This document shows, piece by piece, positions 7,418 to 31,815 of a stretch of DNA of 64,000 nucleotides. Source of the DNA: an uncultured Verrucomicrobiae bacterium (GTDB taxonomy: Bacteria; Verrucomicrobiota; Verrucomicrobiia; Chthoniobacterales; JAFAMB01); the NCBI GenBank assembly GCA_963762565.1, contig CAVXLD010000001.1:480001-544000 (forward strand), read 5' to 3'. The notes beneath the pieces are model-generated. The model saw only the letters and a program-made list of their open reading frames with translations, had not been told where the DNA came from and made no database searches. Within the stretch, counting starts at the first letter, position 1; every line of letters begins with the position of its first letter. A program made the translations under genes and the position numbers.

Positions 7418-7759
7418 GTGTCCTTCTCATCCCTGATCTCACGTCCCGAGGACCAGACCTACACGGTCCATCCAGGCAGTGCGGCCGCCACCTCTTGCAC
7501 CTTCGAACTGCTTGCTCCCGTCCGGAGCAAAACCATCCCCTACGCTTACCTCCAGATGATCGATGTCACGGACGACCACACCATCTGCCTGCGTTATGCC
7601 TTCGCAGACGTCGAACTGCTCACAAACCGGACCTTTACCGCCAAACGCCAGTTCCTGGATGACCTAGCCAATTTCCGAGTCTCCACCGTCCGCGAAACCA
7701 ACCAGCTGAAAATCCGGATCCGCCTGGAACCCGAGAGCGAAAAGACGGAACTATTTTAG
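7418..7759 (+). CDS. Hypothetical protein at left edge of the T4SS-containing region
   Basis: 113-aa ORF after an AT-rich gap; plausible beta-rich globular sequence (PYAYL motif). Confidence 0.65.
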   Translation: MSFSSLISRPEDQTYTVHPGSAAATSCTFELLAPVRSKTIPYAYLQMIDVTDDHTICLRYAFADVELLTNRTFTAKRQFLDDLANFRVSTVRETNQLKIRIRLEPESEKTELF

Positions 7760-7828
7760 GAGGAGCCGAGCAGGACCACTAAGTCCACTGCGTCCACTAG
7801 CTCAGCGGCTCTCCACGGACGCCTCACC

Positions 7829-8380
7829 TCACCCGACCGGCGGATATTCCCTCGTTCCCCACCGATTCATTAACGCGTTATTAACTCCCCAACGAACAAT
7901 CGGGTGCCGGGCTGCAATCAGAAAATGAGCCCAAGGAGAGTTCTCACCGAGCCTCGATCCAAAGTTGCGTCGATGCTCGACGATGGCTTCCAATACGGTA
8001 TCGGCGAAGAGCGCCGTCTTTGCGGACAGCGCTGGGAGCGACTCGGCCGTAGACTCCGCGATCAATAGACAATAGCTGATCACCTTGGCCACAGTCCGAG
8101 CACTCAAATAGCCGGGCTCAGATACGCGTTCCGGATCGAGCACTAACGGGAAATTCTCGGCCGTGATCTCCCGATAGCTCCATTTGTCGCACAGGTCAGT
8201 CCGGGACATCGGGAACCGCGCATGGGACACCAAGTCCAAAAGGGTCCAGCTTATTTTCGGGTAAGGCGGCTCCGCAAAATCGTAACTGTAATTCAATGGG
8301 ATCGCCCGAATGGTCGAGGCTTCCTCGGGATACAATCCTAATGAGGATCCCGGGGCAGGCGGCGGCTGGTTGTCCCCCAT
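7829..8380 (-). CDS. Hypothetical protein
   Basis: 183-aa ATG-initiated ORF with no competing long ORF. Confidence 0.6.
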   Translation of the reverse strand: MGDNQPPPAPGSSLGLYPEEASTIRAIPLNYSYDFAEPPYPKISWTLLDLVSHARFPMSRTDLCDKWSYREITAENFPLVLDPERVSEPGYLSARTVAKVISYCLLIAESTAESLPALSAKTALFADTVLEAIVEHRRNFGSRLGENSPWAHFLIAARHPIVRWGVNNALMNRWGTREYPPVG

Positions 8381-8523
8381 CTTAAAACCTTAACCGCAGA
8401 TTAACGCAGATGGACGCAGATAAAACGTGGCGAATCGTCTGACCACCGATGTTCTCCGGAAAAATATCTGCGTTTATCCATCTGCGGTTGAAGGTCTTTA
8501 TTCGTCGGCTTTCGCAGCCCAAC

Positions 8524-9258
8524 CTACTTCGAGACGGCAGCGCCGTTGGTCCGTGCCTTTTTCTTCTTCTCCTTGATCTCAAAAGCCAGCGACAACACGC
8601 GCCGGTACTTCGCCTGACCAACTGCCACCAACCGGATGCTGAGGTCCGTCTTCTCGTTGATTTCCTGCAGGGCTCTATCGATCGCTCGCTGCTTAAGGTT
8701 GGGCCAATGGACCAGGCATTTCTCGCTCACAATGTTTCCTTGCGCATCGCGAACCTCGTCGACTCCCAGCACCTTGCGTAGCTTCGGGATGGAAATGCGC
8801 TTGAGATTGACCTGCCGCCATTTCCACGCCCATTCATAAAGCCGGATCGAATACTGGCTCGCCAGCTTGACCCCCGCTCGTTCGGAGTCCTCCTTTTGAT
8901 GGTTCTTAAGGCGCTCCAGATGCCGGTACAACCCCGGGTCAATGTGTAGAACCATCTTTTTATCCACTACCGTGACCGAGCTGAGCCACCGGGCATAGAG
9001 GACGGAGTTCTGCTTGTCCCCATTGTGTAACACCAACCGGTGGTAGGTCAGGAGTTTCAGCACTGCCGGTTGTAGGTCGAAATCCTCAAAGTCATAGCCG
9101 GTTACGCCCGGCTTAAGACGGTCCACAATCGACATGACGACAGTCCGCTCATCTTTGGTCAGTTTATAGAACGCTTCAATGAGGTCGTCGCCAAAACCAA
9201 GCTGATCCTCTAGATCCGCAAGTGGTAACGTTCCAAAAATTCTGTTATTTTTACGCAC
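8524..9258 (-). CDS. Rep_3/RepB-type replication initiator-like winged-helix protein
   Basis: YKLTKDERTVV (WH1-like), LASQYSIRLYE, ISIPKLRKVLGV, NLKQRAIDRALQEINEKTDL (WH2 signature). Confidence 0.85.
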   Translation of the reverse strand: MRKNNRIFGTLPLADLEDQLGFGDDLIEAFYKLTKDERTVVMSIVDRLKPGVTGYDFEDFDLQPAVLKLLTYHRLVLHNGDKQNSVLYARWLSSVTVVDKKMVLHIDPGLYRHLERLKNHQKEDSERAGVKLASQYSIRLYEWAWKWRQVNLKRISIPKLRKVLGVDEVRDAQGNIVSEKCLVHWPNLKQRAIDRALQEINEKTDLSIRLVAVGQAKYRRVLSLAFEIKEKKKKARTNGAAVSK

Positions 9259-9328
9259 TTTACTTTGTGGGAATTACAGTGTTAAGACTTAATTAATAAC
9301 TTAAATTTTTTAAGAAAGAAGCACTAAA

Positions 9329-9766: not shown

Positions 9767-9784
9767 CCGCTTCGCGGCGAACCT

Positions 9785-10163
9785 TGGTAGGGCGAGGCCG
9801 GCCGCTTCGCGGCGATGACGAATAGCAGATAGCAAATTTGGTTGTCGCTTGCAGAGCGCTGCCACCGATCTGGTGGGGCGAGGCTCCGGATTAGCCGGGC
9901 AAGACCGCAACGAGAACTGGCGTTTCGTCGGTATATCAGATGCGGTATCCAATAGCTGCCGAGCCGGGGATTGCGCGGACCACGGCTCGGCAGCTCTTAG
10001 TTATTGCACACATCAATTAGTGCATGGCTATCCGCCCTGCCTACCTCTTCACTCGTTCCGCAGCCTCGCCCCACCAAGCTGAGCGCGCGTGGCCTTCTGC
10101 AAGTTCTGGCACGTGCATTTGCTATTTGCTATCACCGCGAAGCGGCCGGCCTCGCCCTACCAA
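9785..10163. repeat. Nested GTAG/GTGG-tagged palindromic element, family B
   Basis: Outer IR ttggtagggcgaggccggccgcttcgcgg / ccgcgaagcggccggcctcgccctaccaa enclosing an inner inverted pair ggtggggcgaggc / gcctcgccccacc. Confidence 0.85.
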
Positions 10164-10229
10164 CGTTTAGGCCACTTTCTTCGATAAGTGGTTGCTCACC
10201 GCCACAAACTGTAATAACAGTATTACTTA

Positions 10230-12092
10230 ATGTTAGAAGTTCTCGCCCATGCCGGTTCCGGACCGCCCGACATCCCCCAGCCGGCGTTGGCACCTTCTTC
10301 ACCACACGATCCCCTCTCTTACCATTCGAACACCGGCACCGTCATTCGCCTCCCCAACTATCAGCCCGGGTTGCCGCCTATCGACCTGCTTGTTCACGGC
10401 GAATATCGTATCCGAGCCCGACCGATCGCACCAAATCGGCCTAGCCCACAAACGCAGGCTGCACCTCGATTCCAGGTCGATGTTTGCACACACCATCACG
10501 TGGTTCGCAGCGAGCGTTACGAAAGCGACGCAACCTCCTTGACCGATGCCGTCGATAAAGCCCGCGCCTGGATTCGGCGACGCCAGTCAATCGATCGTTT
10601 CGCCTTCATGCTTTCCCCCAACCTAATCCTGGTTTGGTGCCTGCTGATGGCCACCATCTGGTTCCTATTTCCACTGGTGTCCTGGGTCAGTTTTGCCCCG
10701 CTCTTCGTCTGTCTAACGGCCACCTTGGGCTGCGCTCCGGCCAGGCGTCACCGCAAAATTACCGCTCGTCTGGCTGGTTTAACCTGGGACCGAAACGACT
10801 TTTGCCGAGGTTGGTTAATCACCGGTGACACTGGCGCGGGCAAGACCTTCGCCATCAATGCTCTTTTACATTCGGTCTTTCAAAACGAGCCGGACTGGGG
10901 CGGACTTTGCTGCGACGAGAAGGGTATCTATCACGAAACCTTGGTCCAAATGACCAAGAAGTATGGCCGGCTCAACGATCTCCGGTTGCTCCAAACCAAG
11001 CCCGATGGCGCCGGAGCCGATTGGGAGCTGCCGGCAACATTCAATCTGCTTTCCGACGATTCGATTCCTGGATCGACCTATGCGACGGTCATCGTTGATA
11101 CGGCCTCCGCCTTAGCCGGAGGTGGCGAAGATAAAGGCTTTTTCAAGACTCAAGCGCACGCTCACATCGGCCGCGGGATTCAACTGTTTCGATTGCTCGG
11201 CTTACGGCCGACCATGCATCACCTATTAGAAACGCTGCAGTACCAACCGATTCTACGGGCGATGTTATCCCGCCTGGATCCGCTAGCCCAGGCCGGAAAC
11301 CGGGAAGCCCGGGAATGCAGCGATCACTTCCTAAACGGTTATCTGCGACAACCTCCTGAGCAATTGGGAGGTGTTATTTCCACTATCTACAATTACCTGA
11401 ACTACTTCACCAATCCTGACCTGGTCCAGGTATTCGGCGCCGAAGAAAACAGTTTCGAATTCTCCGATCTGGATGACGGCGCCATCATTTGCATTGCGAT
11501 GCCGCAGAAGTTTCAGACAGAACGTCGCTACGTCACCACCATCCTGAAGCTGTTGTTCTACACCCACGCCTTGCGCCGGTTCGATCCTCGGCCACCCAAT
11601 AAGCGCCCACTCTCAAGCGATAATCTGTTGATCTGTTGGCAGGATGAAGCCCAGCGATTTGTCAGCGATTCAGACGGAAATGTGGACGTTATCCGTCAAG
11701 CGAACACCACTACGGTACTGGCTGCGCAATCCAAGCTTTCGTTCATACCCCCGCTTGGAAACAAGGATAAAGCAGATGTGACCCTATTGAATCTGCGTAA
11801 TCGGATCATCTTTAAGGCAGCAGACCGCTCTTGCGCCGAAGGTTCTGCTGACTTCATCGGCAAAAAGCTAATCTGGAAAAAATCATACACGCGTGGAATG
11901 GGGAACCGGTCCACCACTCGATCGAGAGAAGAAGAGTACCGGGTAAAGCCATTTGAATTGATGGCCCTTCCGAAGTTCACCGCGGTCGTCAAACATTGCG
12001 AAAAACGTTTTCGAAAATCTCGCATTCATCCGATTGATCCGGATGGAAGAATTCCGCGCTGGTATCCGTGGTGGAGGCGCATTCTAAGATAG
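10230..12092 (+). CDS. Type IV secretion coupling protein, VirD4/TraG-like
   Basis: TM segments, Walker A GDTGAGKT, Walker B WQDEAQRF, LAAQS, and C-terminal EEYRVKPFELMALPKFTAVV typical of T4CPs. Confidence 0.85.
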   Translation: MLEVLAHAGSGPPDIPQPALAPSSPHDPLSYHSNTGTVIRLPNYQPGLPPIDLLVHGEYRIRARPIAPNRPSPQTQAAPRFQVDVCTHHHVVRSERYESDATSLTDAVDKARAWIRRRQSIDRFAFMLSPNLILVWCLLMATIWFLFPLVSWVSFAPLFVCLTATLGCAPARRHRKITARLAGLTWDRNDFCRGWLITGDTGAGKTFAINALLHSVFQNEPDWGGLCCDEKGIYHETLVQMTKKYGRLNDLRLLQTKPDGAGADWELPATFNLLSDDSIPGSTYATVIVDTASALAGGGEDKGFFKTQAHAHIGRGIQLFRLLGLRPTMHHLLETLQYQPILRAMLSRLDPLAQAGNREARECSDHFLNGYLRQPPEQLGGVISTIYNYLNYFTNPDLVQVFGAEENSFEFSDLDDGAIICIAMPQKFQTERRYVTTILKLLFYTHALRRFDPRPPNKRPLSSDNLLICWQDEAQRFVSDSDGNVDVIRQANTTTVLAAQSKLSFIPPLGNKDKADVTLLNLRNRIIFKAADRSCAEGSADFIGKKLIWKKSYTRGMGNRSTTRSREEEYRVKPFELMALPKFTAVVKHCEKRFRKSRIHPIDPDGRIPRWYPWWRRILR

Positions 12093-12123
12093 TGATGAGC
12101 AGACTCGGATGAGCGGAATCATC

Positions 12124-13173
12124 CTACCGGATGCTCGCATAGGTGCGAAACTCCGCCGGATCCAACTGACCTTGCACTTGCTTTAAGGCAGTCTGGAAAT
12201 CGACCATTCCCAATTCTCTTCCCGCCAACATATAGTTTTCTAGTTCTCGTTCGTTTCCCGATATAATCACCGCCTCGGTGTTAAGTGCGTGCACGCAGAT
12301 CTCGCGCACGGCTATTCTTCCTGAGGTTTTCCGTCGTAACAGCCGTTGATTCATCACTAACCGCATCGTTCGTCCGAAAACGTAACGCACCTCAGCCGCC
12401 ATCCGTTCGGGCGCCAGTAGGATCAAACGTCTGACCGTCTCCACCACACTGCTTGCATGCAGCGAACCGATCACCAGATGCCCAGTTTCTGCCGCTTGTA
12501 ATGCGGCTAAAACCGAATCTGCGTCCCGAATCTCACCCACCACAATAACGTCGGGATTCTGCCTCAGGGCTTGACGCAAACCTTCTGCATACGAGGGCAC
12601 ATCCCGTCCGACTTCTCGCTGAATAATTTCCGCTTGGTTTGCTCGGAAAAGGAATTCAACCGGGTCTTCGATAGTCACAACCTTTGCCGGCCGCGAAACA
12701 TTGATGGCTTCGATGATGGCTGCGATGGTGGTGGTTTTTCCTGAGCCGGTTGGTCCGGAGACCAAGACTAATCCATCCGTGAGCGCCACAACGAGGGCGG
12801 CGATGCGTTTAGAAATTCCGATCTCCAGAAGATCAGGCGGCTGTGCCGGCAGTGGACGTAGTGAGGCGAAGAGTTCCCCTTGCGCACGCCCCAGATTGAC
12901 TCGGAACCGAAGGCCGTTGATCTCGGCAGTGTAATCCGCGGCGCCCATCGGCCCGCTAACCTCAGGACCAGCCGCGGGATACAATTTTATCAGCTCGGCA
13001 ATGAGTTCTTGTACTTCACTCCGGGACAAGGCGCCGTCTTCGCTTAGGTGAACGACTCTGCCTTCGAGTCTTGCCGTAACGTTGGCTTGAAAGACAGAGA
13101 TGTCGCTAACCTGATTCGAGCGAACAAACTCCACGACTTGGGCCCATCGCTCTGCAGTTGTCATCGTAAACAC
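12124..13173 (-). CDS. pilT: PilT/PilU family type IV pilus ATPase
   Basis: GPTGSGKTTT, TIEDPVEF, LRQNPDVIVVGEIRD, AAETGHLV. Confidence 0.85.
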   Translation of the reverse strand: MFTMTTAERWAQVVEFVRSNQVSDISVFQANVTARLEGRVVHLSEDGALSRSEVQELIAELIKLYPAAGPEVSGPMGAADYTAEINGLRFRVNLGRAQGELFASLRPLPAQPPDLLEIGISKRIAALVVALTDGLVLVSGPTGSGKTTTIAAIIEAINVSRPAKVVTIEDPVEFLFRANQAEIIQREVGRDVPSYAEGLRQALRQNPDVIVVGEIRDADSVLAALQAAETGHLVIGSLHASSVVETVRRLILLAPERMAAEVRYVFGRTMRLVMNQRLLRRKTSGRIAVREICVHALNTEAVIISGNERELENYMLAGRELGMVDFQTALKQVQGQLDPAEFRTYASIR

Positions 13174-13176
13174 ACC

Positions 13177-13908
13177 TTAGTTATTCGCTGGAGACGGCGC
13201 CGCGCTCAGCTTCTGCTGATTTTCAGGGTGCTTTGGGCAGTAAACCTGCTGGGTTAAGCTAAGCAGGTTTTGGTAATTGGCGCCGGCATTGTCAGGGCAC
13301 TGGGGAATCCCAAATCTAAAGTATGGCTGAAAGTCTGGAATGCTGGGAACACTGGTCGCTCCGGGATGATCCCGGAGATATTCGTCCTTAGCCGCTTCAA
13401 TGGTTAACATATTGTTCAAGCAGACGCGCTGGTTCTGCTGATTGAGTGCGGATAAAACCGAGGTCGTGATCAAGGCCGAGACCAGCGCGATAATGGTGAT
13501 GACAACCAGCAGCTCGATTAAAGAGAGACCAGCGTGCCGCCTCCTTCTCGCTGTGAGGAAATACGTCCACGGCGGCGCATGCCCAGCGCCTGGAGGGGAG
13601 CCGCTTTGTCGCCTGGCAGTTCTATAGGATGGCTGCTGGCGGCTCCCGGGAATAACCCAGCGTGGTGCTTGCACCCAGCCTCCCTGTTTCGGCGCGAATT
13701 GATTCGGACGCCGCACGTAGAACCGCCCTACCCTGGGTCGTTCCCGGGAGCCGCTTGCTGCCAACTTGCAGAGCTGCCGAGTTGCAAAGCGGCTCCCCTC
13801 CAGGCGTTGGGCAGGTGCTGTATCGTATCGCCTTGCAATGCGTGTAACCTTTAGAATCTGAAGGAACCACTTCCTGAAACCTAACCGCGGCTCACCGGTA
13901 GGCCTCAT
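13177..13908 (-). CDS. Type IV prepilin-like protein (start uncertain)
   Basis: Class III signal RRRRHAG/LSLIELLVVITII with E5, C-terminal Cys pair; mature part 13177-13527. Confidence 0.8.
   Translation of the reverse strand: MRPTGEPRLGFRKWFLQILKVTRIARRYDTAPAQRLEGSRFATRQLCKLAASGSRERPRVGRFYVRRPNQFAPKQGGWVQAPRWVIPGSRQQPSYRTARRQSGSPPGAGHAPPWTYFLTARRRRHAGLSLIELLVVITIIALVSALITTSVLSALNQQNQRVCLNNMLTIEAAKDEYLRDHPGATSVPSIPDFQPYFRFGIPQCPDNAGANYQNLLSLTQQVYCPKHPENQQKLSAAPSPANN
13580..13813. repeat. 234-bp imperfect palindromic element, family H
   Basis: 29-bp terminal IR with one mismatch (tgcccagcgcctggaggggagccgctttg) plus extended inner pairing; relative at 58738-59165. Confidence 0.85.
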
Positions 13909-14518
13909 AGTTCTCCAGGTCATCCTTCAACAGAAAATCGCGCAACACTTTCTGGGTCACCAGGTTAAGCGCTCTAAATACGTTCCTGCCAGTCACGCAA
14001 TCACCGGCCAGACGATCAACTTTCCGATCCGGTGCTCGTATTAGCAGATCGATCGCATCGGTCGGTGCTATCTGCTCTTCTGATAGATCGCGCTTATTAT
14101 AGAATAACATCCAGGTTAGTTGCTCAGGCTTGAGGTCAAGTGTTGCCAGATTTTCTTCCAGATTCCTAAGACTCTCGATATTGGCCTCCATTCGATCCCA
14201 TTGTGAGTCCACAATAAAGATTAGACCGTCGGCACCGCGAAGAACCAGTTGCCGCGTTGCGTTGTACATCACCTGGCCTGGAACGGTCCAAAGCTTGAAT
14301 CGCACTTTGAAACCTTTTACTGAGCCACCGGTAATCGGAAGGAAATCAAAGAAAAGCGTCCGGTCATTTTGGGTCGGTAATAAGACTAAGTTACCTCTAT
14401 CCTGCGCATCCACTCGCTCGTGGACATAGCCAATAGAGGATGTCTTACCACCCAGGGCGCAGCCATAGTAAACGATCTTAAATTCGACCTCACCCTTAAC
14501 GAAATTGATGAAAGACAT
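13892..14518 (-). CDS. mglA: MglA-like small GTPase
   Basis: KIVYYGCALGGKTS, DRTLFFDFLP, TVPGQV.YNATR, NKRD. Confidence 0.9.
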   Translation of the reverse strand: MSFINFVKGEVEFKIVYYGCALGGKTSSIGYVHERVDAQDRGNLVLLPTQNDRTLFFDFLPITGGSVKGFKVRFKLWTVPGQVMYNATRQLVLRGADGLIFIVDSQWDRMEANIESLRNLEENLATLDLKPEQLTWMLFYNKRDLSEEQIAPTDAIDLLIRAPDRKVDRLAGDCVTGRNVFRALNLVTQKVLRDFLLKDDLENYEAYR

Positions 14519-14595
14519 CTCCCCCAATGCTAGTATTGACCCAACGTATTCGTCGAATGTTTTTATATATAAAAATTTACAGCACTTAAATCGGA

Positions 14596-16083
14596 TTAAC
14601 GATCGGTTATGTCGCCGGCGGTCCGAAATCCGATTCGCTCATCGAGAGTATACGGCGAAAGCTCAACGACTCGCCGGGCTAGTTGCCCGTCTTCGCTCAT
14701 GAAATTCCCGCCTCGGACGACTGGCGATCCACTGCCATCATCACTGGCCGTCCACTCGGAAACATTGCCGGCGAGATCATGCACTCCATAAGGGCTGCAG
14801 TCGCCCGGGTACTGTCCCACTTCTGACCACCCGCCCGTCCGGCGCGCTCCACTATAAAGGTTGGCCGCGCCGGTCTTAGGTTCATCGCCCCAAGGATATT
14901 GTCGTCCATCACTCCCTCTGCCTGCCTTCTCCCACTCCATCTCAGAAGCGAGCCGCCGGTTCTGCCACTTAGCAAAGGCGTATGCGTCAAACCAATCGAG
15001 ATAGACGGCGGGAAAGTTCGGATTCAGACGCACCCCTTTGAACTCGGCCCCGGCAAAGGCGGCCTTGGCATACGCTTCCCAACTGGGATTCGTGTGGCGC
15101 TTGCCCACCCGTTGGTTGGGGTGATCATACTTGGTATTGTCTCCGGCGGCGTCCAGAAACTCCTGATATTGCCACACCGTGACTTCGGTGGAATCGATAT
15201 TAAACGCGGGCAAATCTACTTGCCGGTTGTCTTGAAATATAAATGGCCCCGCGGGGATTAAGATCCTGGAAGGAGTTAGTTTCTGCCAACCGGTTTGGAA
15301 CCCGAACGCCTTCTTTTTGTCGATCAAGTTCTCCCAAACCGCAGAACGGAAACTGTTATTGAGCAAAAGCCAAAGAAGTCCACAGGACACAGCAACAATT
15401 AAAGCGATGGAAACAGCCCGCTTTAGAGTCTGATGTCTGCGCTCTCGATCCTGCTCCTGCGCAATGCGCTGCAACAATTCCGTTGCCGCATCGTGTTCCA
15501 ATTGAGTTTCCTCTCCATTCTTCTCAGATCGCTTGTTCCCAGGCCACCATTTTGCGATCGGTCGCGATGCGGTGAGAAAAGACCGAGACGACATCCTTCT
15601 ACTTCTTCCCTGTCCCACCCTCTGGTGTTCCCACTCGTCGCGTTGGCGTACCGCGTCCATTAGAACTTGCTCCCAACGACCGAAGATGGTCCGCGGAGTT
15701 ACCTGTTCGGGCGGAATAGGCGCAAATTCGAACATCCCCCGCATCCAGCAAAGCACTTCAAGTAGAGCGGGTTCGCCGATCTTTGATTTGGTGACTGCGT
15801 GGATGATCCGCCCGTGTTGGAGCACAATCTCGCCGGTTTCCCCACGACGGCGCACTCTTAAGCGCCCGTCGCGCCGAGCGACACATGCCATCTGAATAAT
15901 ATCAAGGAGCGGGAAGTTGCGCAGTTTACCGCTAAAACCTGCAGCTCCGGCCTTTATCCTGATTGGTCCCGGCGTCGTATCGGTTGGAGCACTTTCCTGT
16001 CGTCCGCCACCACGCATGAGCTTTCGATGTAGACTTGTCCTTCGTTCGATCTGAACCCTAGGCATCGCCGGAAGCGTAGGCAA
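14596..16083 (-). CDS. DUF4388 domain - TM - formylglycine-generating-enzyme (SUMF1) domain protein
   Basis: GFSGKLRNFPLLDIIQM...GRIIHA (DUF4388); TEVT..QY, RLASEMEWEKAGRG, YPWG, DLAGNVSEW, IGFR (FGE-sulfatase). Confidence 0.85.
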   Translation of the reverse strand: MPTLPAMPRVQIERRTSLHRKLMRGGGRQESAPTDTTPGPIRIKAGAAGFSGKLRNFPLLDIIQMACVARRDGRLRVRRRGETGEIVLQHGRIIHAVTKSKIGEPALLEVLCWMRGMFEFAPIPPEQVTPRTIFGRWEQVLMDAVRQRDEWEHQRVGQGRSRRMSSRSFLTASRPIAKWWPGNKRSEKNGEETQLEHDAATELLQRIAQEQDRERRHQTLKRAVSIALIVAVSCGLLWLLLNNSFRSAVWENLIDKKKAFGFQTGWQKLTPSRILIPAGPFIFQDNRQVDLPAFNIDSTEVTVWQYQEFLDAAGDNTKYDHPNQRVGKRHTNPSWEAYAKAAFAGAEFKGVRLNPNFPAVYLDWFDAYAFAKWQNRRLASEMEWEKAGRGSDGRQYPWGDEPKTGAANLYSGARRTGGWSEVGQYPGDCSPYGVHDLAGNVSEWTASDDGSGSPVVRGGNFMSEDGQLARRVVELSPYTLDERIGFRTAGDITDR

Positions 16084-16139
16084 GTCTTTAGCCGCGACGA
16101 AATCGCAATCGTTCTCTTAATGACACCAGCCCATCGCGG

Positions 16140-17530: not shown

Positions 17531-17542
17531 CGGGGTCTGTCC

Positions 17543-17732
17543 GTGGAGCGCTGCCTCGCTTGCGAGGCCGTGGCGAGCAGGGCTGATGACGAGGCATATC
17601 GGCGGCTCCCCTCGTTCCCTCGCATGTCCCGGACTCGGCCTATGTACGACACAGTGCGCAGCACACAAAGCGACCTATATCATTTCGAATACCCTTGCTC
17701 ACCACGGCCTCGCAAGCGAGGCAACGCTCCAC
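17543..17732. repeat. Inverted REP doublet, family C
   Basis: gtggagcgctgcctcgcttgcgaggccgtgg ... ccacggcctcgcaagcgaggcaacgctccac; same unit as the array at 52729. Confidence 0.85.
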
Positions 17733-17745
17733 AGTCAGCCATCAT

Positions 17746-17794
17746 ATTGATTTATCAATCAACATTGACGACATAACGAATCCGTTCTCATGCT
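17746..17794 (+). promoter_or_regulatory. Palindromic operator plus sigma70-like promoter
   Basis: ATTGAT-TT-ATCAAT (17746-17759), TTGACG (17765-17770), CATGCT (17789-17794), ATG at 17801. Confidence 0.6.
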
Positions 17795-17800
17795 AACCAC

Positions 17801-24710: not shown

Positions 24711-24711
24711 A

Positions 24712-25509
24712 CTATTTATTTTCTGTGGTTTGCACGCTTAGTGTCTCTGGCTGTCCGAAAGCATAATCGACGACAGCAAAGGGATACCGTTGATTTCTCC
24801 CTAGAAAAGGATTGCGCACGAGCTTCAGGTTGAGAGCAATCGGTTGTGGCTGATCCACCTGTTGGTCACCGATCTGTGCCTGGGTCAGGATTTGCCCAAT
24901 CACTCGACTCATTACAATACCACCCCCGATTCGTTGCAGGTCTATCCTAGCAATCTCCAATTTTTGATGAATACTTTTTTTCTTAAATTCGTCTGCGAGG
25001 CCTTTAAATTCGTTCTTTGCCTTCTCGGCAGCTTCGGGCAGGAAGACTCGGTTAAGGGTGTCGGGTGCATCGAATCCCTGCGGATCGCGATCGAGGAAGG
25101 ATTTAGCGGCCCAGTACGAGACGGTGTTCAAAATCTCGTCGCTCTGTTCCACCGGCACCAAAGGAGCGATGATAAGCGACTCGGTGCCGTCCATGAGAGC
25201 GACTTTTTCCGGTTTAGTCATCGCAGTGACCAGGTAGATCGGCACAATCACATGAGCGATCAGCGACAAGATCAGGGCTATCCAGAGCAAGCGAGTGGTT
25301 CGGTTAGCAGCCGCCAACCGATTCGCCGCATGGTTACGTTGCATTGCAGCGTCAGCTCTGGCATCGCGGCTAACCTCCGTCGCCTCTAACGACTCCTCAT
25401 CCAGGCCCATCGATCGAGTCCGATTCATGTCAGACGCCGGCGTCTCTTCCCGCGCCGGGTCGATTCGGTTCTCGACCGATGTCTGGGCGTTTTCAGGTCT
25501 CGCTTTCAT
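24712..25509 (-). CDS. VirB8/TraE-like bitopic T4SS protein
   Basis: Single TM followed by an NTF2-like pattern (RNP...RYPFAVVDY); operon position. Confidence 0.55.
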   Translation of the reverse strand: MKARPENAQTSVENRIDPAREETPASDMNRTRSMGLDEESLEATEVSRDARADAAMQRNHAANRLAAANRTTRLLWIALILSLIAHVIVPIYLVTAMTKPEKVALMDGTESLIIAPLVPVEQSDEILNTVSYWAAKSFLDRDPQGFDAPDTLNRVFLPEAAEKAKNEFKGLADEFKKKSIHQKLEIARIDLQRIGGGIVMSRVIGQILTQAQIGDQQVDQPQPIALNLKLVRNPFLGRNQRYPFAVVDYAFGQPETLSVQTTENK

Positions 25510-25537: not shown

Positions 25538-27004
25538 TCAGGGAGTTGACTGGTTCTGTTTCAAATAGTTTGCAGCCCGCTGAGAGGATCGATTTGGTGG
25601 GTTTCGCTTCACCTGCGGCAAAGACAAATATCTCTCCGGTCCAATTCGGTTACCGCTCGCGTCCGCCACAAGAGCGCCTAGCGTACTTGCCATGTTGCCC
25701 GCCGTCCTCGAGACAAACTCGCCGGCTCCCATGACCTTTGCGATGCCGGTGTCTAAGGTCCGCGCTTTGTCTCCGGTCACTGCGTCCGAACGTCCGCTCT
25801 CTTCGATCCCGCGGTACCCAGGTAAGAAGTAGTCGAGCCATTCGTCACCGCTTGCTCCCTGCTGCCCGCCGGACCCATTTCCCTGGTTACCAGTGTTATT
25901 AATCGATTGAGACCCAGAGTTCCCCTTGCCGCCGGTGCTCTTTATAGCGCCGACGGGTTGGTTTGCTCCCCTGGCGAGACCAAACCCCAGTCCGAAGACT
26001 GAACCACTCACCCCACCGACCGCCGAGATCATGGCGCCGACGAAGCCCTGTATCTCCGCCCCGCCGCGGACCACTATCTTCTGAGTGTAGAACGGTGCTA
26101 GGACATGGCCAATCATGACCCAAAGAAGAACCGGAACGCACCAAAGAATGGCGATGAGCAATTGGCCCAGGTTTTCCTGGTTCGGCGCAATCAAATTCTG
26201 GCAAAGCGCAATAGTAACGACGTTAACAAAAACCCAGCCAATCGGCCAACATTGCACACCAAGATAGGTCTTGAAAAACGCTTCTGCTTGGCCCCGTAGA
26301 CTTGGAATGGAGAATTCAGCAAAACCAATCGGCACATACAGACCGAGAAAAACGAGAATGCAGCTCTGCAGTACTTCCATCAAAACTACGATCAACTCAC
26401 AAAGCAAGAGAGCGAGTAAGAAGATTGTATATAAGACTGCGCACAATGCGTGCGTGACAGTCGATAGAGCATTTTGCCAAACCGCTTGGCCGGATTGCTG
26501 AAGCTGACTCACCGGGTTGAACCAATTTAGTAACTGCTGCAATCCACCGGATGATTGAGCCTGCGAATTCGCCGGCTGTGTGCTCTGACCTTGCACTGGT
26601 GCTGTTATGGAGGCGACAGCCTTTGACTCGAGTAGCTGTGTCAGGGCGCCAATATCCATCCTGGCACTGGTCGTCATCGTTTTATTATTCGTAAGGGCTC
26701 CGAAATTGGCCGTGATCTGCAGGCTGCAAACAGCGTTTACCGCGTTACTGACTATCCCGGTAACCAGTGTCCAATTCCCAATCAATAAGACCAAGATTAC
26801 GACTCGTACCAGGTTTCCGAAAAAATGCCGGAGATCATTTTGCATAAACCCGCGCATTGTTCCGAAAACCAAGAGCACAAACGCCACACAAAGAAAGATG
26901 GGCTCAATCTGGTTGGCTACATTTTGCATCCCGGTCACGATCGCTGTCAGTCCCGTCGCGAAGGAGGCCACGGAAGATAACATTGACGAAAACGGCGTGG
27001 GCAT
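25538..27004 (-). CDS. VirB6/TrbL-like polytopic T4SS protein
   Basis: About 6 TM segments and a Gly/Ser-rich C-terminal tail. Confidence 0.65.
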   Translation of the reverse strand: MPTPFSSMLSSVASFATGLTAIVTGMQNVANQIEPIFLCVAFVLLVFGTMRGFMQNDLRHFFGNLVRVVILVLLIGNWTLVTGIVSNAVNAVCSLQITANFGALTNNKTMTTSARMDIGALTQLLESKAVASITAPVQGQSTQPANSQAQSSGGLQQLLNWFNPVSQLQQSGQAVWQNALSTVTHALCAVLYTIFLLALLLCELIVVLMEVLQSCILVFLGLYVPIGFAEFSIPSLRGQAEAFFKTYLGVQCWPIGWVFVNVVTIALCQNLIAPNQENLGQLLIAILWCVPVLLWVMIGHVLAPFYTQKIVVRGGAEIQGFVGAMISAVGGVSGSVFGLGFGLARGANQPVGAIKSTGGKGNSGSQSINNTGNQGNGSGGQQGASGDEWLDYFLPGYRGIEESGRSDAVTGDKARTLDTGIAKVMGAGEFVSRTAGNMASTLGALVADASGNRIGPERYLSLPQVKRNPPNRSSQRAANYLKQNQSTP

Positions 27005-27017
27005 AGCGCGAAGCCTC

Positions 27018-27866
27018 TTACTGGTTCGCCGGGGCAAACATGTTTTTCGCCGCAGCCTGCATCAACATGTCGTCCTCTAACGCTTGTTGCTGCCACTGCT
27101 CTCTCTGCGCCTCTTGCACGCGGGCGGCGTCGTTCTGGTTAGCCGCGTGTTGCACCACTATCTTCTGAGAGTACATGTTTAGCCGCGCCGTCGCGTTGTT
27201 GATATTCGCTTCGACTGCTTGCAGCTGAGATTTCAGCTTTTCAGTCTCAATCAACGAGCTAGCTGAATTTAATTGCTGTAAAATCTGCTGTTTCTGTTGT
27301 AACAAGCCGGCTAAAGCTTGGTTCGCTTGAGTCATTTCAGTGTTAAACGATTGGTACATGTTCTGGACCATGGCGAACTTCGTGAAGTTGTTGGATTGAA
27401 ACTGAATAGGATTACCAAACTGATCTTTCAGCTGACTGAGGTCCTGGTATAAACCGTTCGCTGTATTTTTTAATGCCATGAACCCGTTAGCCGTTTGTTG
27501 AAACCCTGCAACGGAGGTCCCCACTCCATTCATTGTCCTCTGGATATCCGCCACGATCGTGTTGAGCGACAGCATGTTCACGTAAGTCGCCGGATTTCCT
27601 AACCGCTCGAGTGCTTGCACGTTCTGACTGATCATGGCTGTCAACTGGGCGATCTGTTGCGTCTGGTTCTCAATCATCTGCACGTACTTCGCCATGTCCT
27701 CAGCATGCTGCGCCGCTTGCACCACTCGATCGACTACCTGCTGAACCACGTTTTCAGCCGTATTGATCGCGTCATAGACGCTAATCATGGCGTGAGCTGA
27801 ATAGCTGCCCGATACAACGAAGATGACTACTAGCAAAGACTTCAGAACTGTTTTCATGTTATTCAA
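27018..27866 (-). CDS. VirB5/TrbJ-like protein
   Basis: Signal peptide, SVYDAIN motif, Gln-rich helical bundle (MIENQTQQIAQL). Confidence 0.65.
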   Translation of the reverse strand: MNNMKTVLKSLLVVIFVVSGSYSAHAMISVYDAINTAENVVQQVVDRVVQAAQHAEDMAKYVQMIENQTQQIAQLTAMISQNVQALERLGNPATYVNMLSLNTIVADIQRTMNGVGTSVAGFQQTANGFMALKNTANGLYQDLSQLKDQFGNPIQFQSNNFTKFAMVQNMYQSFNTEMTQANQALAGLLQQKQQILQQLNSASSLIETEKLKSQLQAVEANINNATARLNMYSQKIVVQHAANQNDAARVQEAQREQWQQQALEDDMLMQAAAKNMFAPANQ

Positions 27867-28221
27867 TGATCGGAATCACGACATCTCGCTGCACTCGAAT
27901 TACCCCATCCGGATCTTGATGTTCCGGAATGGTCGCATTGTAATATTTCATTTCTCCCTCGTTTTCCGCTTTACTGGTTTGCTGACTTTTCTGTTGAGCC
28001 CAGTACGTCCGCTTAACTTGATCGGAAATGCCTTTTGCATAGCCCTTAGCAAAATCGATCGGCACCTTCCGCTCATCGTCGCCGGTCCCCATTAATGGGT
28101 CTCCCTGGTTAGTTAACGCTTCTGAGCCTCTCCCCTGCACAGTGAGTTGACCTTTGGGCACGGTCGGACCAACAGTACAACTTGCTAGAATCAGACTGAC
28201 TAACAAACCAAGGCGCTTCAT
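27859..28221 (-). CDS. Small T4SS-operon lipoprotein (VirB7/TraV-like position)
   Basis: Lipobox ILASC; overlaps both neighbours. Confidence 0.65.
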   Translation of the reverse strand: MKRLGLLVSLILASCTVGPTVPKGQLTVQGRGSEALTNQGDPLMGTGDDERKVPIDFAKGYAKGISDQVKRTYWAQQKSQQTSKAENEGEMKYYNATIPEHQDPDGVIRVQRDVVIPIIE

Positions 28222-31067
28222 AAGATTGGTTCGGTTGCAGATTCCTCTTTGGCAGAAGCGATGGCTCCCGATTCTTCGATGATCCCGGTGACAATGTCGC
28301 GGTATTGGGAAAGGGCCGATTTCCGTTGATCGAACGTCTCGTTGTCGCTAGAGGCAGCATACAGCAGTTCCCGAGAAGCAACGTTTTTCACGGTACCGAC
28401 CAACCGGCGCATCCGGTCATTAGCAACATAGGTAAACGCGCTGAACCGCTCCCTTGGATCCATTAGCTCCGGTAAAGGATAGTTATTGATCGTCTCTATC
28501 GTTTTAGGAGAAAGGCTGAGTGCTTCCCCGATCTCTTTAACGTCTTCCCGGCTCTGTTGAGCCGTGATCAGAAACATCTTCGAGTTGCCGATCATGGCCC
28601 CCCTCACAGTTGAATCTTTGATGATGTCGTATTGCTGAACTACCGCCAAGATGTTGCAGCCGAATTTTCGCATCTGCCGGTAATATTCCTGGATCATCTT
28701 GGTGCCTCCCGGAATATCGAGCGTACGCGCGGCTTCTTCGAAAATGGCGATTTTCGGGGCCGACCTGGGCATAGAGATGATCTTCTGGCGGCCATAGTTA
28801 GCGACCAGAAAGTTGGCGGCGGCTTTCAGCTCAACCGCATGTTCCGGGATTTGGCCGAGCTCGAAATGAGCTACCCGGCCATCGATGCGGATATTGCTAA
28901 CTCCATCGAATAAACACCCTTTTTCTCCGTCTCGGCTCCAACCGCGCAGCAATTTCCCAACCCGGTCCGATTCCTCTTTCTCTCGCGAGCCGCCCCTGGG
29001 ATTGTAAAGCAATTGTTCCATCAAGGCGCTGTGGGTAGGAAACTGCGCAGATGAAAAACCGGCGAAGGCTAAATCGCGGACTAACCTTTCCGTCGCTCGG
29101 TTCTTAGCGAATTCCGCTACGGTCTCTTCGCTGAGGTCCTCGATAAACGAGTTGGCTTCATCCGGGTTCCGTTGTTGCCAATCTCGGAAGGCGGCAAAAG
29201 CGTCATCGAAACCGAGATGCGTCCCTTTCATGCGGGTGCGTAGATACTTGTCGATAGCGCAGGCTAACCAACGCAACTCTTCGGCCGTCCCTTCGTTGGC
29301 AACGCTCCAATCCGTGAACACATCGGTATAGAGCTGTTGCAGATTCTCCACGATCATGGCGTGGCGTAAGGCTCGCCTCTCTGCATCAAGGCCTTCGTTT
29401 CCACAAAATAGCAGGCAAAGTCCCGCGCTAAAGGCGAGGTGCATCGGCGATAATGGCGAGCCATGAGTGTCTAGATAGTTAATGGTTAGGCTCCCGTTCT
29501 GACTAATTACCACAGGCTCGCATCCCTGAGTCTGAGTCATGACGCCGTGGGAAAGACCTTCTTCCACAATGAGCCTGAACCCGAAGCGATGTCCTATCTG
29601 AGCAAGCAGATCACTCACAATCACCGACTTGCCTGCGCCGGTCATTCCGAACAGGACGCCGTGTTGAGGCGTATTTCCGATCCGCGTTCTGATCCCGACC
29701 AGATTTCCGCGAGCGCCGTTATAAATGGCTTCGGCATCTTTCAAATGGCCGGTAAAAGTTGCGGACCACGGAATCAGATCTGCTAAATAAGCGTCTTCTG
29801 CCGCCAGGTCGAACGCCCGGTAACGACCGTAGGTCCACCCTGGCCAGGTCTGATAAAAGAGCTGGCGAGCGTTCTCCGGAATAGTGGCATGATGAACGAT
29901 CGCGCCACCCATCGCAGTGAAAGCGTTCCGCAAAGAAGCGCACCTAGCGGATAATACATCCGCTGACCGGTGCCAGAGCCGCACGATATACAAGCAGCCC
30001 AATGGAATGATTTTGCCCTGTTGTAGTTCGGTAACCTTGTCTTGCTTGGCCTCCAGGTCTGTCGCTAACGATTGTTTACGCTCAGAGGCGGCATCGATTT
30101 GCAAACGCTGAATATGACGTTCTTCCTTGTCGATGACTTTATCGACGGCCTTAGGATAAATGTTCATCGTAATCGCGTATTCCTGAAACCCCATGCTAGT
30201 CAGAGCAGAGATAATTCCGGGGAACGTTCGACGAGGCCATTGCCGAACCGCGAAGATGGCGTGGTAAAATCCATCGAAACATAAGGACACACCCGGCAGG
30301 GTCGATACGCCAGCGCCATCGGTGTGGACACAATTCTGTTGAATCGATCCGCTAGGGTCGAACAACTCCATCGGGTCTGTGATCCCCGTTTGCAGGTTGG
30401 GGTTTAACAACCGGTAATAGAAAAGAAAGTGATCCTGATCCTGCATCGGAATGATCCGGCAATCAGAGAATAGTCGACTTAGCGCCCCCAAGGCGAAGTC
30501 TTGGAGGGAAAGCGCTTCCTTTCGGGAGAGCGCATTAAAATAGTCGGCCACGGCCGGCCCACGAGTCATGGGAACCTTGGTGTCGATAATCCTGGTGAAG
30601 AACAGATTGAGCCGTTCCCGCCGAAGACGACCCTCCTGCATTGCCGCCACATAACGTTCGTACCGCTCAGCTCGAACAAAAACCCCGAACCTGCCATGCA
30701 CCGGTTCTCGGCGGCGCAGTTCCAACGTCTCCTGGTGATATTGCTCGAGTTCCCGGCGGTAGTCGCTATCGATACTCCACTGAACTTGGAGATGGTATTC
30801 TTGCCCAAGCATTCCCAGCATGATGCGCAGCTTTTCATGCAGCGCGTTTAACTGGCGCACGCTAAACGCATTGATTTCACCCGGCTCGACACTGAATCCG
30901 CGAGAGATTGCGGTCTTACGGGAAGCACCGTCTCCGAACCAGATCAGGTTGTTGATAAAGAAGCCGTTGGGCATCCCGAGCCGAGACACGCGGCTGCTGC
31001 GTTTCCCTCTTCCACCGGAAGCGAAATCGACGATTCCAGTGCAGGCATTAATCATAGCGTCAATCAT
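28218..31067 (-). CDS. VirB4/TraC-like T4SS ATPase
   Basis: 949 aa; HGVLFGMTGAGKS, INYLD, LFDG, IFEEA, RQMRKFG, VVQQ. Confidence 0.9.
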   Translation of the reverse strand: MIDAMINACTGIVDFASGGRGKRSSRVSRLGMPNGFFINNLIWFGDGASRKTAISRGFSVEPGEINAFSVRQLNALHEKLRIMLGMLGQEYHLQVQWSIDSDYRRELEQYHQETLELRRREPVHGRFGVFVRAERYERYVAAMQEGRLRRERLNLFFTRIIDTKVPMTRGPAVADYFNALSRKEALSLQDFALGALSRLFSDCRIIPMQDQDHFLFYYRLLNPNLQTGITDPMELFDPSGSIQQNCVHTDGAGVSTLPGVSLCFDGFYHAIFAVRQWPRRTFPGIISALTSMGFQEYAITMNIYPKAVDKVIDKEERHIQRLQIDAASERKQSLATDLEAKQDKVTELQQGKIIPLGCLYIVRLWHRSADVLSARCASLRNAFTAMGGAIVHHATIPENARQLFYQTWPGWTYGRYRAFDLAAEDAYLADLIPWSATFTGHLKDAEAIYNGARGNLVGIRTRIGNTPQHGVLFGMTGAGKSVIVSDLLAQIGHRFGFRLIVEEGLSHGVMTQTQGCEPVVISQNGSLTINYLDTHGSPLSPMHLAFSAGLCLLFCGNEGLDAERRALRHAMIVENLQQLYTDVFTDWSVANEGTAEELRWLACAIDKYLRTRMKGTHLGFDDAFAAFRDWQQRNPDEANSFIEDLSEETVAEFAKNRATERLVRDLAFAGFSSAQFPTHSALMEQLLYNPRGGSREKEESDRVGKLLRGWSRDGEKGCLFDGVSNIRIDGRVAHFELGQIPEHAVELKAAANFLVANYGRQKIISMPRSAPKIAIFEEAARTLDIPGGTKMIQEYYRQMRKFGCNILAVVQQYDIIKDSTVRGAMIGNSKMFLITAQQSREDVKEIGEALSLSPKTIETINNYPLPELMDPRERFSAFTYVANDRMRRLVGTVKNVASRELLYAASSDNETFDQRKSALSQYRDIVTGIIEESGAIASAKEESATEPIL

Positions 31068-31401
31068 GGGAGTGCCGAACTGGGTGCAACGGTTGACGTT
31101 TTGCGGCGTGAAACCACCGGCCGTTTGCTAGAGTGGTTAACAAGTCGAGGTCGTAACGGGGCGGCCGCCGGTGACGAAATAAGAGAAGGTAAGCGCCAAC
31201 CAGGAGAGTCGGTAAACCCGCCACCAGGAACTTAGCAGGGATGGGCAAAGGATTATTGGCGTGAAACAGCATGGTCAAGATGAAGACTGAGACCATGGCG
31301 GCAACGATCAGAGCCATTCCCAGATTACCTTCGAACCCGAAAGCATGACCTGTCGATTTGGCTCGGGGCCGGCTATCAGTGTAAATAAGTCCTTCTTCCA
31401 T
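31060..31401 (-). CDS. VirB3-like membrane protein
   Basis: 113 aa, two TM segments, directly upstream of virB4. Confidence 0.65.
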   Translation of the reverse strand: MEEGLIYTDSRPRAKSTGHAFGFEGNLGMALIVAAMVSVFILTMLFHANNPLPIPAKFLVAGLPTLLVGAYLLLFRHRRPPRYDLDLLTTLANGRWFHAAKRQPLHPVRHSHD

Positions 31402-31455
31402 AACCAGAAGTAGAGTGGTTAGGGTTCAGAATTGGGCGATCAGTGCTTTTATCAT

Positions 31456-31815
31456 TCAGAATTGACCGATGTACTGCGCGCTGTTGTTGGTCCCGGCGAA
31501 CAAGCCGAACATCGCTTTCATTAGAGCGACAGCGCCGGCCACGCCGACTCCATAAATCACGGTCATCTTCCAATTTTCGTCTCGCCGGGCGTTGAGAAAG
31601 CCACCGATAACCATGGTGCACCCAGCGATAAAACCAAACGCAGTAATCAGGTTTAATCCTTGAACTAAACTCGTGACGAACCCGCTGATAGAAGCTCCAC
31701 CGGAGGACGTTTGCGCCTGCGCTGGGCTAAGCAACAACGTTAACGACGTGCTCGCCAGCCATAGCCGTACCCACCAGCGGGCCCACGGAACACTCTTGAG
31801 GTAGCAGTATTTCAT
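31456..31815 (-). CDS. VirB2/TrbC-like conjugative pilin
   Basis: Long signal peptide ending AQAQ, then two hydrophobic helices; first gene of the operon. Confidence 0.65.
   Translation of the reverse strand: MKYCYLKSVPWARWWVRLWLASTSLTLLLSPAQAQTSSGGASISGFVTSLVQGLNLITAFGFIAGCTMVIGGFLNARRDENWKMTVIYGVGVAGAVALMKAMFGLFAGTNNSAQYIGQF

Follow-up and report, generated by a model that had tools for sequence, protein, structure and literature searches.

A probably host-owned type IV secretion system with no conserved relaxase in a family of Chthoniobacterales

We analyzed a stretch of 64,000 nucleotides (the window) from the genome of an uncultured Verrucomicrobiae bacterium (contig CAVXLD010000001.1, positions 480,001 to 544,000; G000:C1:480001-544000 in our numbering). 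Between folC and nadC, the window encodes a type IV secretion system (T4SS) and a separate VirD4-type coupling protein (T4CP). It is likely, in our judgment, that this T4SS is owned by its host and is not an integrative conjugative element (ICE). It is an apparently complete, intact, and selected envelope-spanning system of the conjugation type, very divergent in sequence, with three or four ATPases and a coupling protein, and with no conserved nicking enzyme. An earlier reading of the sequence alone had proposed a domesticated conjugation machine, and five results agree with it: VirB4 is found across the family, the site beside nadC is fixed, the VirB4 tree follows the genera, dN/dS is low, and the relaxases are patchy in the family and broken in G000. 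Below, G000 is the source genome (6.1 Mb in 15 contigs), f1 is its family within the Chthoniobacterales, g1, g4, g5, g7, and g8 are genera, and other G-numbers are relatives. The region between folC and nadC is termed the island, and positions given without a contig are window positions.

Orthologues of the VirB4 ATPase (70-94% identity) are present in 39 of the 42 other genomes from the family, across 11 genera (22 of 24 in a smaller sample). The three family genomes with no VirB4 match are 61-87% complete, and all 10 of the high-quality family genomes, counting G000, have the gene. We found no orthologue in the 16 genomes that sample 15 sister families within the order. The position of the system is conserved as well. 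The virB2 end of the operon adjoins nadC in G012, G020, G009, G017, G004, and G001, and the site on the nadC side is constant in the five relatives that we examined from three other genera. On the other side, a block of three genes (a Rep_3-type gene, the orphan gene o9329, and virD4) adjoins folC in G020, G016, and G012. In G012, a rearrangement has placed the two blocks 3.7 Mb apart, and both are kept.

We built a tree from 30 VirB4 orthologues with recovered loci, omitting the partial matches of some ten other genomes; one paralogue served as the outgroup. Each of the genera g1 (6 sequences), g4 (15), g8 (3), and g5 (2) is a single clade (SH-aLRT support of 100), and every genus with more than one member is monophyletic. 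The eight genus labels require 7 changes on this tree, which is the minimum; shuffled labels required 14.3 on average, and none of 200 shuffles reached a count that low. Near-copies favor this test, so all that we take from it is the lack of any sign of transfer from one genus to another. The sequence-only reading had named the VirB4 tree and synteny as checks, and both came out in its favor. These sequence comparisons show that an ancestor of the family fixed the T4SS, which is of a Verrucomicrobiota-specific class, between folC and nadC and that it has been inherited vertically since then.

The genes are also under selection. Between G000 and its congener G004, Nei-Gojobori (NG86) estimates of dN/dS, which are approximate, lie at 0.03-0.16 for the 20 genes compared in the T4SS and the linked module (Table 1). 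These ratios are like those of the housekeeping flanks and exclude relaxed selection on the virB genes, which the earlier reading had set against its own proposal. They also bear on whether the locus is the decaying remnant of an ICE or plasmid and has no present function. In favor of decay, host repeats have invaded the spacers, and a canonical start is missing from the pilin gene close to the leader. However, all of the open reading frames (ORFs) in the island are open, as had been noticed from the sequence; and with these ratios and orthologues of 70-94% identity in 11 genera, both selection and distribution already contradict a remnant. We give this explanation almost no credence.

The virB operon (20.6-31.8 kb) has the order virB2-3-4-lipoprotein-5-6-8-9-10-lipoprotein-AAA, and this order and content, first read from the ORFs, is borne out by profile matches, membrane topology, and the fold of VirB9. 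Nine of the ten junctions between genes span -20 to +54 bases, and the tenth, ahead of the AAA gene, spans 284 bases. VirB4 is single-copy in G000 and marks the sole VirB4 system of the genome. Both of its NCBIfam matches are far under the curated cut-offs, while Pfam's P-loop_TraG scores 35.4 bits (versus 25.8), and the Walker A motif is GMTGAGKS. As to the mating-pair formation (MPF) class, VirB4 matches TraC-F no better than it matches the Bacteroides TraG P-loop, and both matches are weak. The VirB7-like lipoprotein is 71-73% identical in G012, G020, and G016 and 62-66% identical in G009 and G017. For the VirB8-like protein, a profile search against the PDB found no VirB8, only NqrC (E = 0.062).

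Table 1. Features of the island and its flanks. Coordinates are window positions; dN/dS values are approximate (NG86, G000 against G004).
Feature	Coordinates	Strand	Evidence or remark	dN/dS
fabD			flank	0.073
folC	6167-7378		flank on one side of island	
Conserved 113-aa protein of no assigned function	7418..7759	+	adjoins folC	
o7829, orphan helical protein, 183 aa	7829..8380	-	downstream of Rep_3	
Rep_3-type two-winged-helix protein	8524..9258	-	Pfam Rep3_N 28.2 bits vs 22.4; Rep3_C 30.7 vs 21.1	0.025
o9329, orphan all-helical protein, 145 aa	9329..9766	+	divergent from Rep_3	0.033
Variable spacer with host nested palindromic repeats	9767..10229	.	51-nt inverted arms 9780-9830 / 10117-10167	
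VirD4-type coupling protein	10230..12092	+	Pfam TrwB_AAD_bind 34.2 bits vs 20.5; TraG-D_C 23.3 vs 22	0.080
PilT-like hexameric ATPase	12124..13173	-	NCBIfam pilT_fam 262.9 bits, cut-off 319.1; TraJ E 2e-46; DotB E 7.5e-41	0.036
Type IV pilin-like gene (start uncertain)	13177..13674	-	N_methyl motif, residues 127-152 of long ORF	0.195
MglA-like small GTPase, family-specific paralogue	13892..14527	-	weak Pfam matches: Arf 23.0 bits vs 22.3, Ras	0.038
PATAN (DUF4388) + FGE-sulfatase-fold protein	14596..16083	-	Pfam DUF4388 E 4e-20, FGE-sulfatase E 1e-33	
HTH-citrate-synthase-like and HMGL-like genes	16361..19126		inside island only in this genus	
AI-2E family transporter	19085..20236	-	Pfam E 6e-42	
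ClpB-NBD2-like stand-alone AAA_2 ATPase	20634..21542	-	Pfam AAA_2 E 3e-24; start at M94	0.053
Second lipoprotein	21830..22486	-	lipobox LLAGC at residue 16	
VirB10/TrbI	22493..23641 (ORF open to 23884)	-	Pfam TrbI 40.6 bits vs cut-off 35	0.135
VirB9, 359 aa	23631..24710	-	signal peptide; AF2 model fold match	0.058
VirB8-like bitopic protein (inferred)	24712..25509	-	one transmembrane helix, residues 77-95; between B6-like gene and VirB9	0.133
VirB6-like polytopic protein	25538..27037	-	6-7 transmembrane helices; Gly/Ser/Asn/Gln-rich tail	0.164
VirB5/TrbJ-like secreted coiled-coil protein (weak)	27018..27866	-	signal peptide; NCBIfam TrbJ E 4e-4, 19.5 bits	0.031
VirB7-like small lipoprotein	27859..28221	-	lipobox ILASC	0.062
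VirB4 ATPase, 949 aa	28218..31067	-	NCBIfam VirB4_CagE E 1.2e-18, TraC-F E 2e-20	0.034
VirB3-like protein	31060..31401	-	two transmembrane helices and position; overlaps virB4 by 8 nt	0.101
VirB2/TrbC-type pilin	31456..31815	-	Pfam PF04956 27.0 bits, cut-off 27.9; signal peptide, two transmembrane helices	0.093
nadC	31918-32772		flank on other side of island	0.070

The predicted structure confirms that the 359-amino-acid protein with a signal peptide is VirB9. The model was built from an alignment of eight rows, and its ordered parts have pLDDT of 76-88. Its best match is VirB9 from the X-T4SS of Xanthomonas (6gyb; Z 12.8, rmsd 2.4, 100 residues aligned), and the second is the outer-membrane core (OMCC) of the F plasmid (Z 10.4; the next row has Z 7.2). 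Foldseek with the same model also lists DotH, TrwF, and CagX, with E values down to 2e-11. The likely start of VirB10 is M82, an ATG at 23641, which gives an 11-nt overlap with the VirB9 stop. The outer-membrane core of VirB9 and VirB10 is thus present, the first by fold and the second by its Pfam match.

Two proteins evolve faster than the rest. The VirB6-like protein is just 52% identical between G000 and G004, versus 82-94% for the rest of the operon, and the type IV pilin-like protein is 63% identical within the genus; the neighbors of these two genes are at 82-96%. Judging from the sequences, this would fit surfaces that meet other cells.

We confirmed by profile searches that the window encodes no relaxase, tyrosine recombinase, or VirB11, in keeping with the earlier reading. 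In G000 there were 0 matches to the relaxase families PF03432, PF03389, PF01076, PF07514, or PF02486. TrwC (MOBF) is found in G000 at two loci, both on other contigs (C5 near 545 kb and C7 near 11 kb). At both loci the reading frame changes within the relaxase domain, near profile position 110, and there are pieces of an AAA_30 helicase, a T4CP-like gene, and no MPF genes. The locus on C5 (L025, G000:C5:536000-553999) adds ParA and DUF932, and the locus on C7 (L026, G000:C7:4000-21999) adds RES and HNH. From their sequences, the two loci look like decayed mobilizable islands. The C7 island also encodes a 467-amino-acid protein with a part like the C terminus of Rep_3 (556-1959). The nearest tyrosine recombinase (PF00589) is on C1, 143 kb beyond the window, and we saw no border repeats in 7300-10300, the only part searched.

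Across the family, TrwC is found in 20 of the 42 other genomes (0-17 matches each, many of them fragments), and in none of the five congeners. The system is kept in G012 (2 contigs, 95% complete) and in G011 (96% complete), although neither genome has a match to TrwC, PF03432, or PF03389. According to the sequence-only reading, a cognate relaxase or oriT and an integrase elsewhere, with a patchy distribution in relatives, would have pointed to an ordinary or fragmented ICE. MOBF relaxases are indeed found elsewhere, and they are patchy; but they come with their own T4CPs and are frameshifted in G000, and the T4SS is not patchy.

These relaxases raise the question of whether the T4SS is a shared mating channel that moves DNA in trans, either for mobilizable MOBF islands that bring their own T4CP or for chromosomal DNA. 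The gene content of the two TrwC loci is what such a channel would call for, the T4SS in the window is the only VirB4 system that could serve them, and a plasmid from Opitutaceae TAV5 (described below) pairs a distant member of the class with a MOBF relaxase. However, neither of the TrwC genes of G000 is in one frame, and 22 of the 42 family genomes, including all five congeners and the near-complete G012, have no TrwC. Also, the T4SS and its own VirD4 are under strong purifying selection, and service to parasites fails to explain conservation at the level of the host. We consider a shared channel to be unlikely and prefer a function for the host.

The earlier reading pointed out the absence of VirB11. 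No gene in G000 reaches the cut-off of the VirB11 model TIGR02788. (The best match in the genome is the PilT-like gene of the island, with 60.3 bits versus a cut-off of 249.95.) As reported by Guglielmini et al. (PMC4027160), only 19% of systems outside MPF_T have VirB11, so its absence here is normal and not unusual.

The T4SS belongs to a wider class in the Verrucomicrobiota. A scan of species-representative genomes gave 523 loci with relatives of VirB4; a group at about 41% identity comes from Limisphaerales, Luteolibacter, and other Verrucomicrobiia metagenome-assembled genomes (MAGs). With a profile of diverse VirB4 proteins, members of the class were found in 36 of 400 other Verrucomicrobiota, and the rate varies by family (for instance 15/35, 5/65, and 0/31). 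We used tblastn to examine the gene content of the 24 distant loci that are longer than 20 kb. All 24 have the ClpB-like ATPase, the second lipoprotein, VirB10, VirB9, and the VirB8-like protein; 23 have the VirB5-like protein and 21 have VirB3. VirD4 was found within 10 kb in just one of them, which is a second T4SS copy in G009 (VirB4 44% identical); this copy comes with a lysozyme-like gene (SLT_3), a zeta-toxin/KfrB gene, and an insertion sequence (IS). The flanks of three distant loci contain MksE, YhcG nuclease, RHS, and IS200 genes, and there is no relaxase or integrase within 10 kb of these three. We also note that 17 of the 50 listed VirB4 matches from the class (Verrucomicrobiota G069-G490) have one in-frame stop (two stops in one case), mostly TGA, and are otherwise full-length.

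The core of the class is VirB2, VirB3, VirB4, the VirB7-like, VirB5-like, VirB6-like, and VirB8-like proteins, VirB9, VirB10, the second lipoprotein, and an AAA+ ATPase that resembles the second ATPase module (D2) of ClpB, with no VirB11. The NCBIfam matches of this last protein (ClpB, E = 2e-42; ClpV1, E = 1e-29) cover the second ATPase module only. The sequence-only reading had linked the ATPase to the domesticated copy. It is present in all 24 distant loci, so we see it as a signature of the class and not as a mark of domestication.

The TAV5 plasmid (CP007054.1) carries a distant relative of the system, with VirB4 (27% identity over 95% of its length), VirD4 (29%), and VirB7-like lipoprotein, VirB6-like, and PilT-like genes. 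It differs in being plasmid-borne and in having a MOBF relaxase, and homologues of the ClpB-like protein, VirB9, and VirB10 were not detected in it (tblastn, E of 0.01). The plasmid is probably self-transmissible, to judge from its genes. MOB-suite types it only as 'mobilizable', and in its annotation every protein of the VirB4/VirD4 set (L027, 44217-86931) is called hypothetical. This class of T4SS goes unrecognized by current typing tools, and conjugative elements of the phylum are probably under-counted. We found no published description of the system or its class in a search of literature outside subscription journals and supplements, and a 2025 review of T4SSs (PMC12857230) contains none of the terms 'AAA+', 'ClpB', 'Verrucomicrob', or 'Planctomycet'. 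The class, with its stand-alone ClpB-D2-like ATPase as hallmark, is so far undescribed in the literature searched. It also offers a natural experiment, as it is patchy across the phylum (36/400) and fixed and vertically inherited in one family (39/42).

At the folC end of the island, the presence of an intact VirD4 and of a Rep_3 gene, both as earlier described, is upheld by Pfam scores above the cut-offs and, in VirD4, by a Walker A motif (GDTGAGKT) and a Walker B motif. VirD4 is found in 38 of the 42 family genomes, and it always adjoins o9329 and Rep_3. The Rep_3 profile matches the pi protein of R6K (2nra, E = 3.4e-4), and in tblastn searches the protein is 26-29% identical to plasmid Rep proteins. 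Rep_3 is not a leftover: it is the most conserved and the most constrained gene of the locus. Orthologues (77-97% identity) are found in 36 of the 42 family genomes, and many g4 genomes also contain paralogues (35-42%). Between genera, the identities of Rep_3 (82-84%) and o9329 (75-82%) are higher than those of accD (76-77%), nadC (63-68%), and folC (54-58%).

Rep_3 does not appear to have iterons. Apart from chance pairs and host palindromes, we found no arrays of direct repeats in 7300-10300. The spacer of about 70 bp between Rep_3 and o9329 has no repeats and a few short conserved stretches. In the spacer between o9329 and virD4, a search for a transfer origin (oriT) or iterons gave no conserved block across six genomes. 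Since there are no iterons near it, Rep_3 is most likely a DNA-binding regulator or a docking partner for VirD4.

The protein o9329 is found in 40 of the 42 family genomes, in a single copy in most genera and in two to four copies in many g4 genomes, and each copy adjoins a copy of Rep_3. It was found in 0 of 400 sampled genomes of other Verrucomicrobiota, and 76 related clusters were found among 1.84 billion representatives. The AF2 model is all-helical (pLDDT 84) and does not match any solved fold (best E value from Foldseek 1.7; best Z in a wide structure comparison 4.7). Its neighbor o7829 is a paralogue (29% identity over 105 amino acids by BLASTP, E = 2e-10). Proteins that are 55% identical to o7829 are found in G020 and G012.

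The T4SS travels with VirD4 and with the lineage-specific module of Rep_3 and the two paralogous orphan helical proteins that it always lies between or beside, and most of the genera that we examined add the PATAN/FGE, MglA, pilin, and PilT genes. The PATAN gene is syntenic with the other three in G012, G020, G009, G017, and G004, and the PilT end of this module adjoins virD4 in G011, G017, G020, G004, and G001. In our sample of the order, orthologues of the island-type MglA (74-78%) and PilT (59-63%) were found only in genera g8 and g7 of f1; g4 has just the general MglA (about 50%) plus a 38% copy, and other families have only the general MglA. G000 has three T2SSE ATPases, and the island's gene is the only short one of the PilT/VirB11/DotB-like kind. 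At E = 1e-30, f1 genomes have one PilT-like match each (two in G011). As many as nine are found in other families of the order, two of which lack any match; f1 seems to have lost the usual PilT/PilU set. In the long ORF of the pilin gene (13177-13923), there is no ATG, GTG, or TTG from residue 84 to the prepilin leader, and a host repeat lies directly upstream, whose translation matches dozens of sites in the genome. The pilin genes in G004 and G012 have ordinary starts.

A second locus in G016, from genus g4, shows that these genes can form a unit. This locus (L057, G016:C2:620000-639999, 9011-16567) has the order o9329' | Rep_3'-o7829'-VirB9'-PATAN/FGE'-MglA'-pilin'-PilT'-166 aa, with an o7829 paralogue after Rep_3'. 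The genes are 33-43% identical to those in the window (VirB9' is 33%), their spacing is operon-like, and they sit among sucCD, citrate synthase, and leuA with no VirB4 or VirD4. From this paralogous operon, we conclude that the Rep_3, o7829, PATAN, MglA, pilin, and PilT genes are one unit, which can include VirB9. The operon may encode a separate small envelope machine around the VirB9 paralogue. Gene neighborhood and the paralogous module support the link to MglA, pilin, and PilT in the sequence-only reading; the g4 island has no such module.

How might the system work? We favor the contact-dependent delivery of a protein or nucleoprotein cargo. Going by what these protein families are known to do, VirB4 and the AAA+ ATPase would assemble the channel through the envelope and the VirB2 pilus and supply both with energy. 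VirD4 would select a cargo other than the element's own nicked DNA, most likely a protein or a protein-DNA complex that would be delivered by contact to neighboring cells. The ClpB-D2-like hexamer might unfold or release substrates or might recycle the machine, as an analogy with ClpB and ClpV suggests. Rep_3 and the two orphan proteins might be a DNA-binding control unit or a docking unit for VirD4. The MglA/PATAN/PilT set could place or switch the machine, and PilT could possibly take the role of VirB11 or DotB.

The same genes might instead belong to a machine for the uptake or release of DNA, akin to competence, as in ComB of Helicobacter or the gonococcal genetic island. The pilin and PilT would serve to draw in DNA, with Rep_3 as the protein that binds it. 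One block does contain a protein with DNA-binding domains (Rep_3), a pilin, and an ATPase of the retraction type, and there is a ComF-like gene (4533-5312) in the conserved flank. ComB lacks VirD4, as do 23 of the 24 distant class loci within 10 kb. However, VirD4 is kept in nearly all of the family's genomes, and comF is a common housekeeping neighbor. DNA release by the gonococcal genetic island is reported to require a relaxase (PMC6736028), and none is conserved here. We doubt this explanation and prefer delivery of a cargo. A more speculative idea is that Rep_3, as a theta-type initiator, and its two orphan partners have replaced the relaxosome: DNA that they open or mark, or Rep_3 itself, would be passed to VirD4, for a relaxase-independent transfer of DNA or nucleoprotein that is switched by MglA/PATAN/PilT. 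In g4, this trio would also drive a second pilus-like machine, one that contains VirB9. We think that this is improbable.

Several points weigh against a host-owned system. We did not identify any cargo, effector, immunity gene, or transfer origin. A relaxase of an unlisted family is possible: our searches covered six Pfam relaxase families, and MOBC and others are outside of these. The two MOBF and T4CP loci, which resemble integrative mobilizable elements (IMEs), could use the channel for DNA transfer in trans. The labels of VirB5, VirB6, and VirB8 come from weak matches, topology, and gene order. All of the genomes that we compared are MAGs, and their genus and family labels were taken from a tool and depend on genome similarity. 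The dN/dS ratios are approximate because dS is 0.6-2.0. Finally, the island of G016 has only VirD4, o9329, and Rep_3, so the MglA module is not an obligate part of the system.

Some other features of the window do not belong to the T4SS. Copies of the 113-amino-acid protein that adjoin folC are 53-59% identical in G020 and G012 and 51% identical in G016; it has no match in Pfam or NCBIfam and is unrelated to o9329. The host repeat families that had been noticed in the island are confirmed at three sites (8380-8520, 9766-10170, and 13550-13923), and a 348-amino-acid protein with an IS200-like Y1 transposase domain (51665-52711) is likely a RAYT for the host palindromic repeats. Of the two genes at 16361-19126, one encodes a MerR/excisionase-type helix-turn-helix (HTH) fused to a C-terminal domain like citrate synthase, and the other is an HMGL gene like that of homocitrate synthase. 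They are in the islands of G000 and G004 but not in those of G012, G020, G016, or G009. The AI-2E transporter gene goes along with the MglA module, as it adjoins the PATAN gene or the operon's end in G012, G020, G009, and G004. Beyond nadC, a 1151-amino-acid Ser/Thr kinase has three PEGA domains (38348-41803), and a PEGA protein also borders the second T4SS copy of G009 (L021 92-946). We considered whether the tRNA-Ser at 33647-33733 was an old attachment site, but nadC and a gene for a histidine-kinase-like ATPase separate it from the island. This pair of genes also adjoins virB2 in G012, G020, G004, and G001. A local turn in GC skew near 50 kb, which we considered as a replication origin, is not a minimum on the 1.5-Mb contig, and we dropped it.

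These bacteria are abundant and uncultured in soil, and the machine may shape their interactions with neighbors. Rep_3 is under tighter constraint than the secretion genes and is tied to VirD4 and to MglA/PilT, so it offers a handle on the choice of cargo or on control.

Co-opted T4SSs without a relaxase are already known from Rickettsiales, Xanthomonadales, Helicobacter, and Patescibacteria. The rvh T4SS of Rickettsiales is of the MPF_T type, has duplicated components, and is found in obligate intracellular bacteria. In contrast, the system described here is from free-living bacteria, has no VirB11, and is of a different class. The two systems are alike in being vertically inherited and chromosomal, with VirD4 and outside of a mobile element (PMC2653234). 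The VirB9 in the window matches that of the bacteria-killing X-T4SS of Xanthomonadales better than any other structure (Z 12.8), with marginal sequence similarity. The X-T4SS has VirB11 and XVIPCD effectors with immunity proteins. It is similar in having an apparently full VirB set and VirD4 with no relaxase, and in being from soil or plant bacteria (6gyb; PMC6536674).

The linked genes have known relatives too. Rep_3 shares both winged-helix domains with the initiators of iteron plasmids (pi of R6K, which is the 2nra match, RepE, and RepM). Unlike these, it is chromosomal, single-copy, without iterons, fixed in the family, and always paired with an orphan helical protein. In Myxococcus and Synechocystis, MglA and PATAN proteins are reported to regulate the motors of type IV pili (PMC11580455; bioRxiv 10.1101/2021.06.11.447907). 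The island appears to have the same kinds of parts (a Ras-like small GTPase, a PATAN domain, a PilT-like ATPase, and a pilin), but here they are a family-specific paralogous set whose partners are VirD4 and Rep_3, joined in one genus by a paralogue of VirB9.

The T4SS of Patescibacteria, as reported by Quinonero-Coronel et al. (2025, PMC12102498), is chromosomal, mostly relaxase-less, and widespread in its lineage, and was proposed to be co-opted. Both that system and ours are derived from conjugation, are chromosomal and lineage-wide, lack a relaxase, and have a proposed role other than conjugation. The Patescibacteria system is derived from the monoderm type MPF_FATA, whereas ours is a diderm VirB2-B10 system with VirB9 and VirB10, VirD4, a ClpB-like AAA+ ATPase, and a Rep_3/MglA module.

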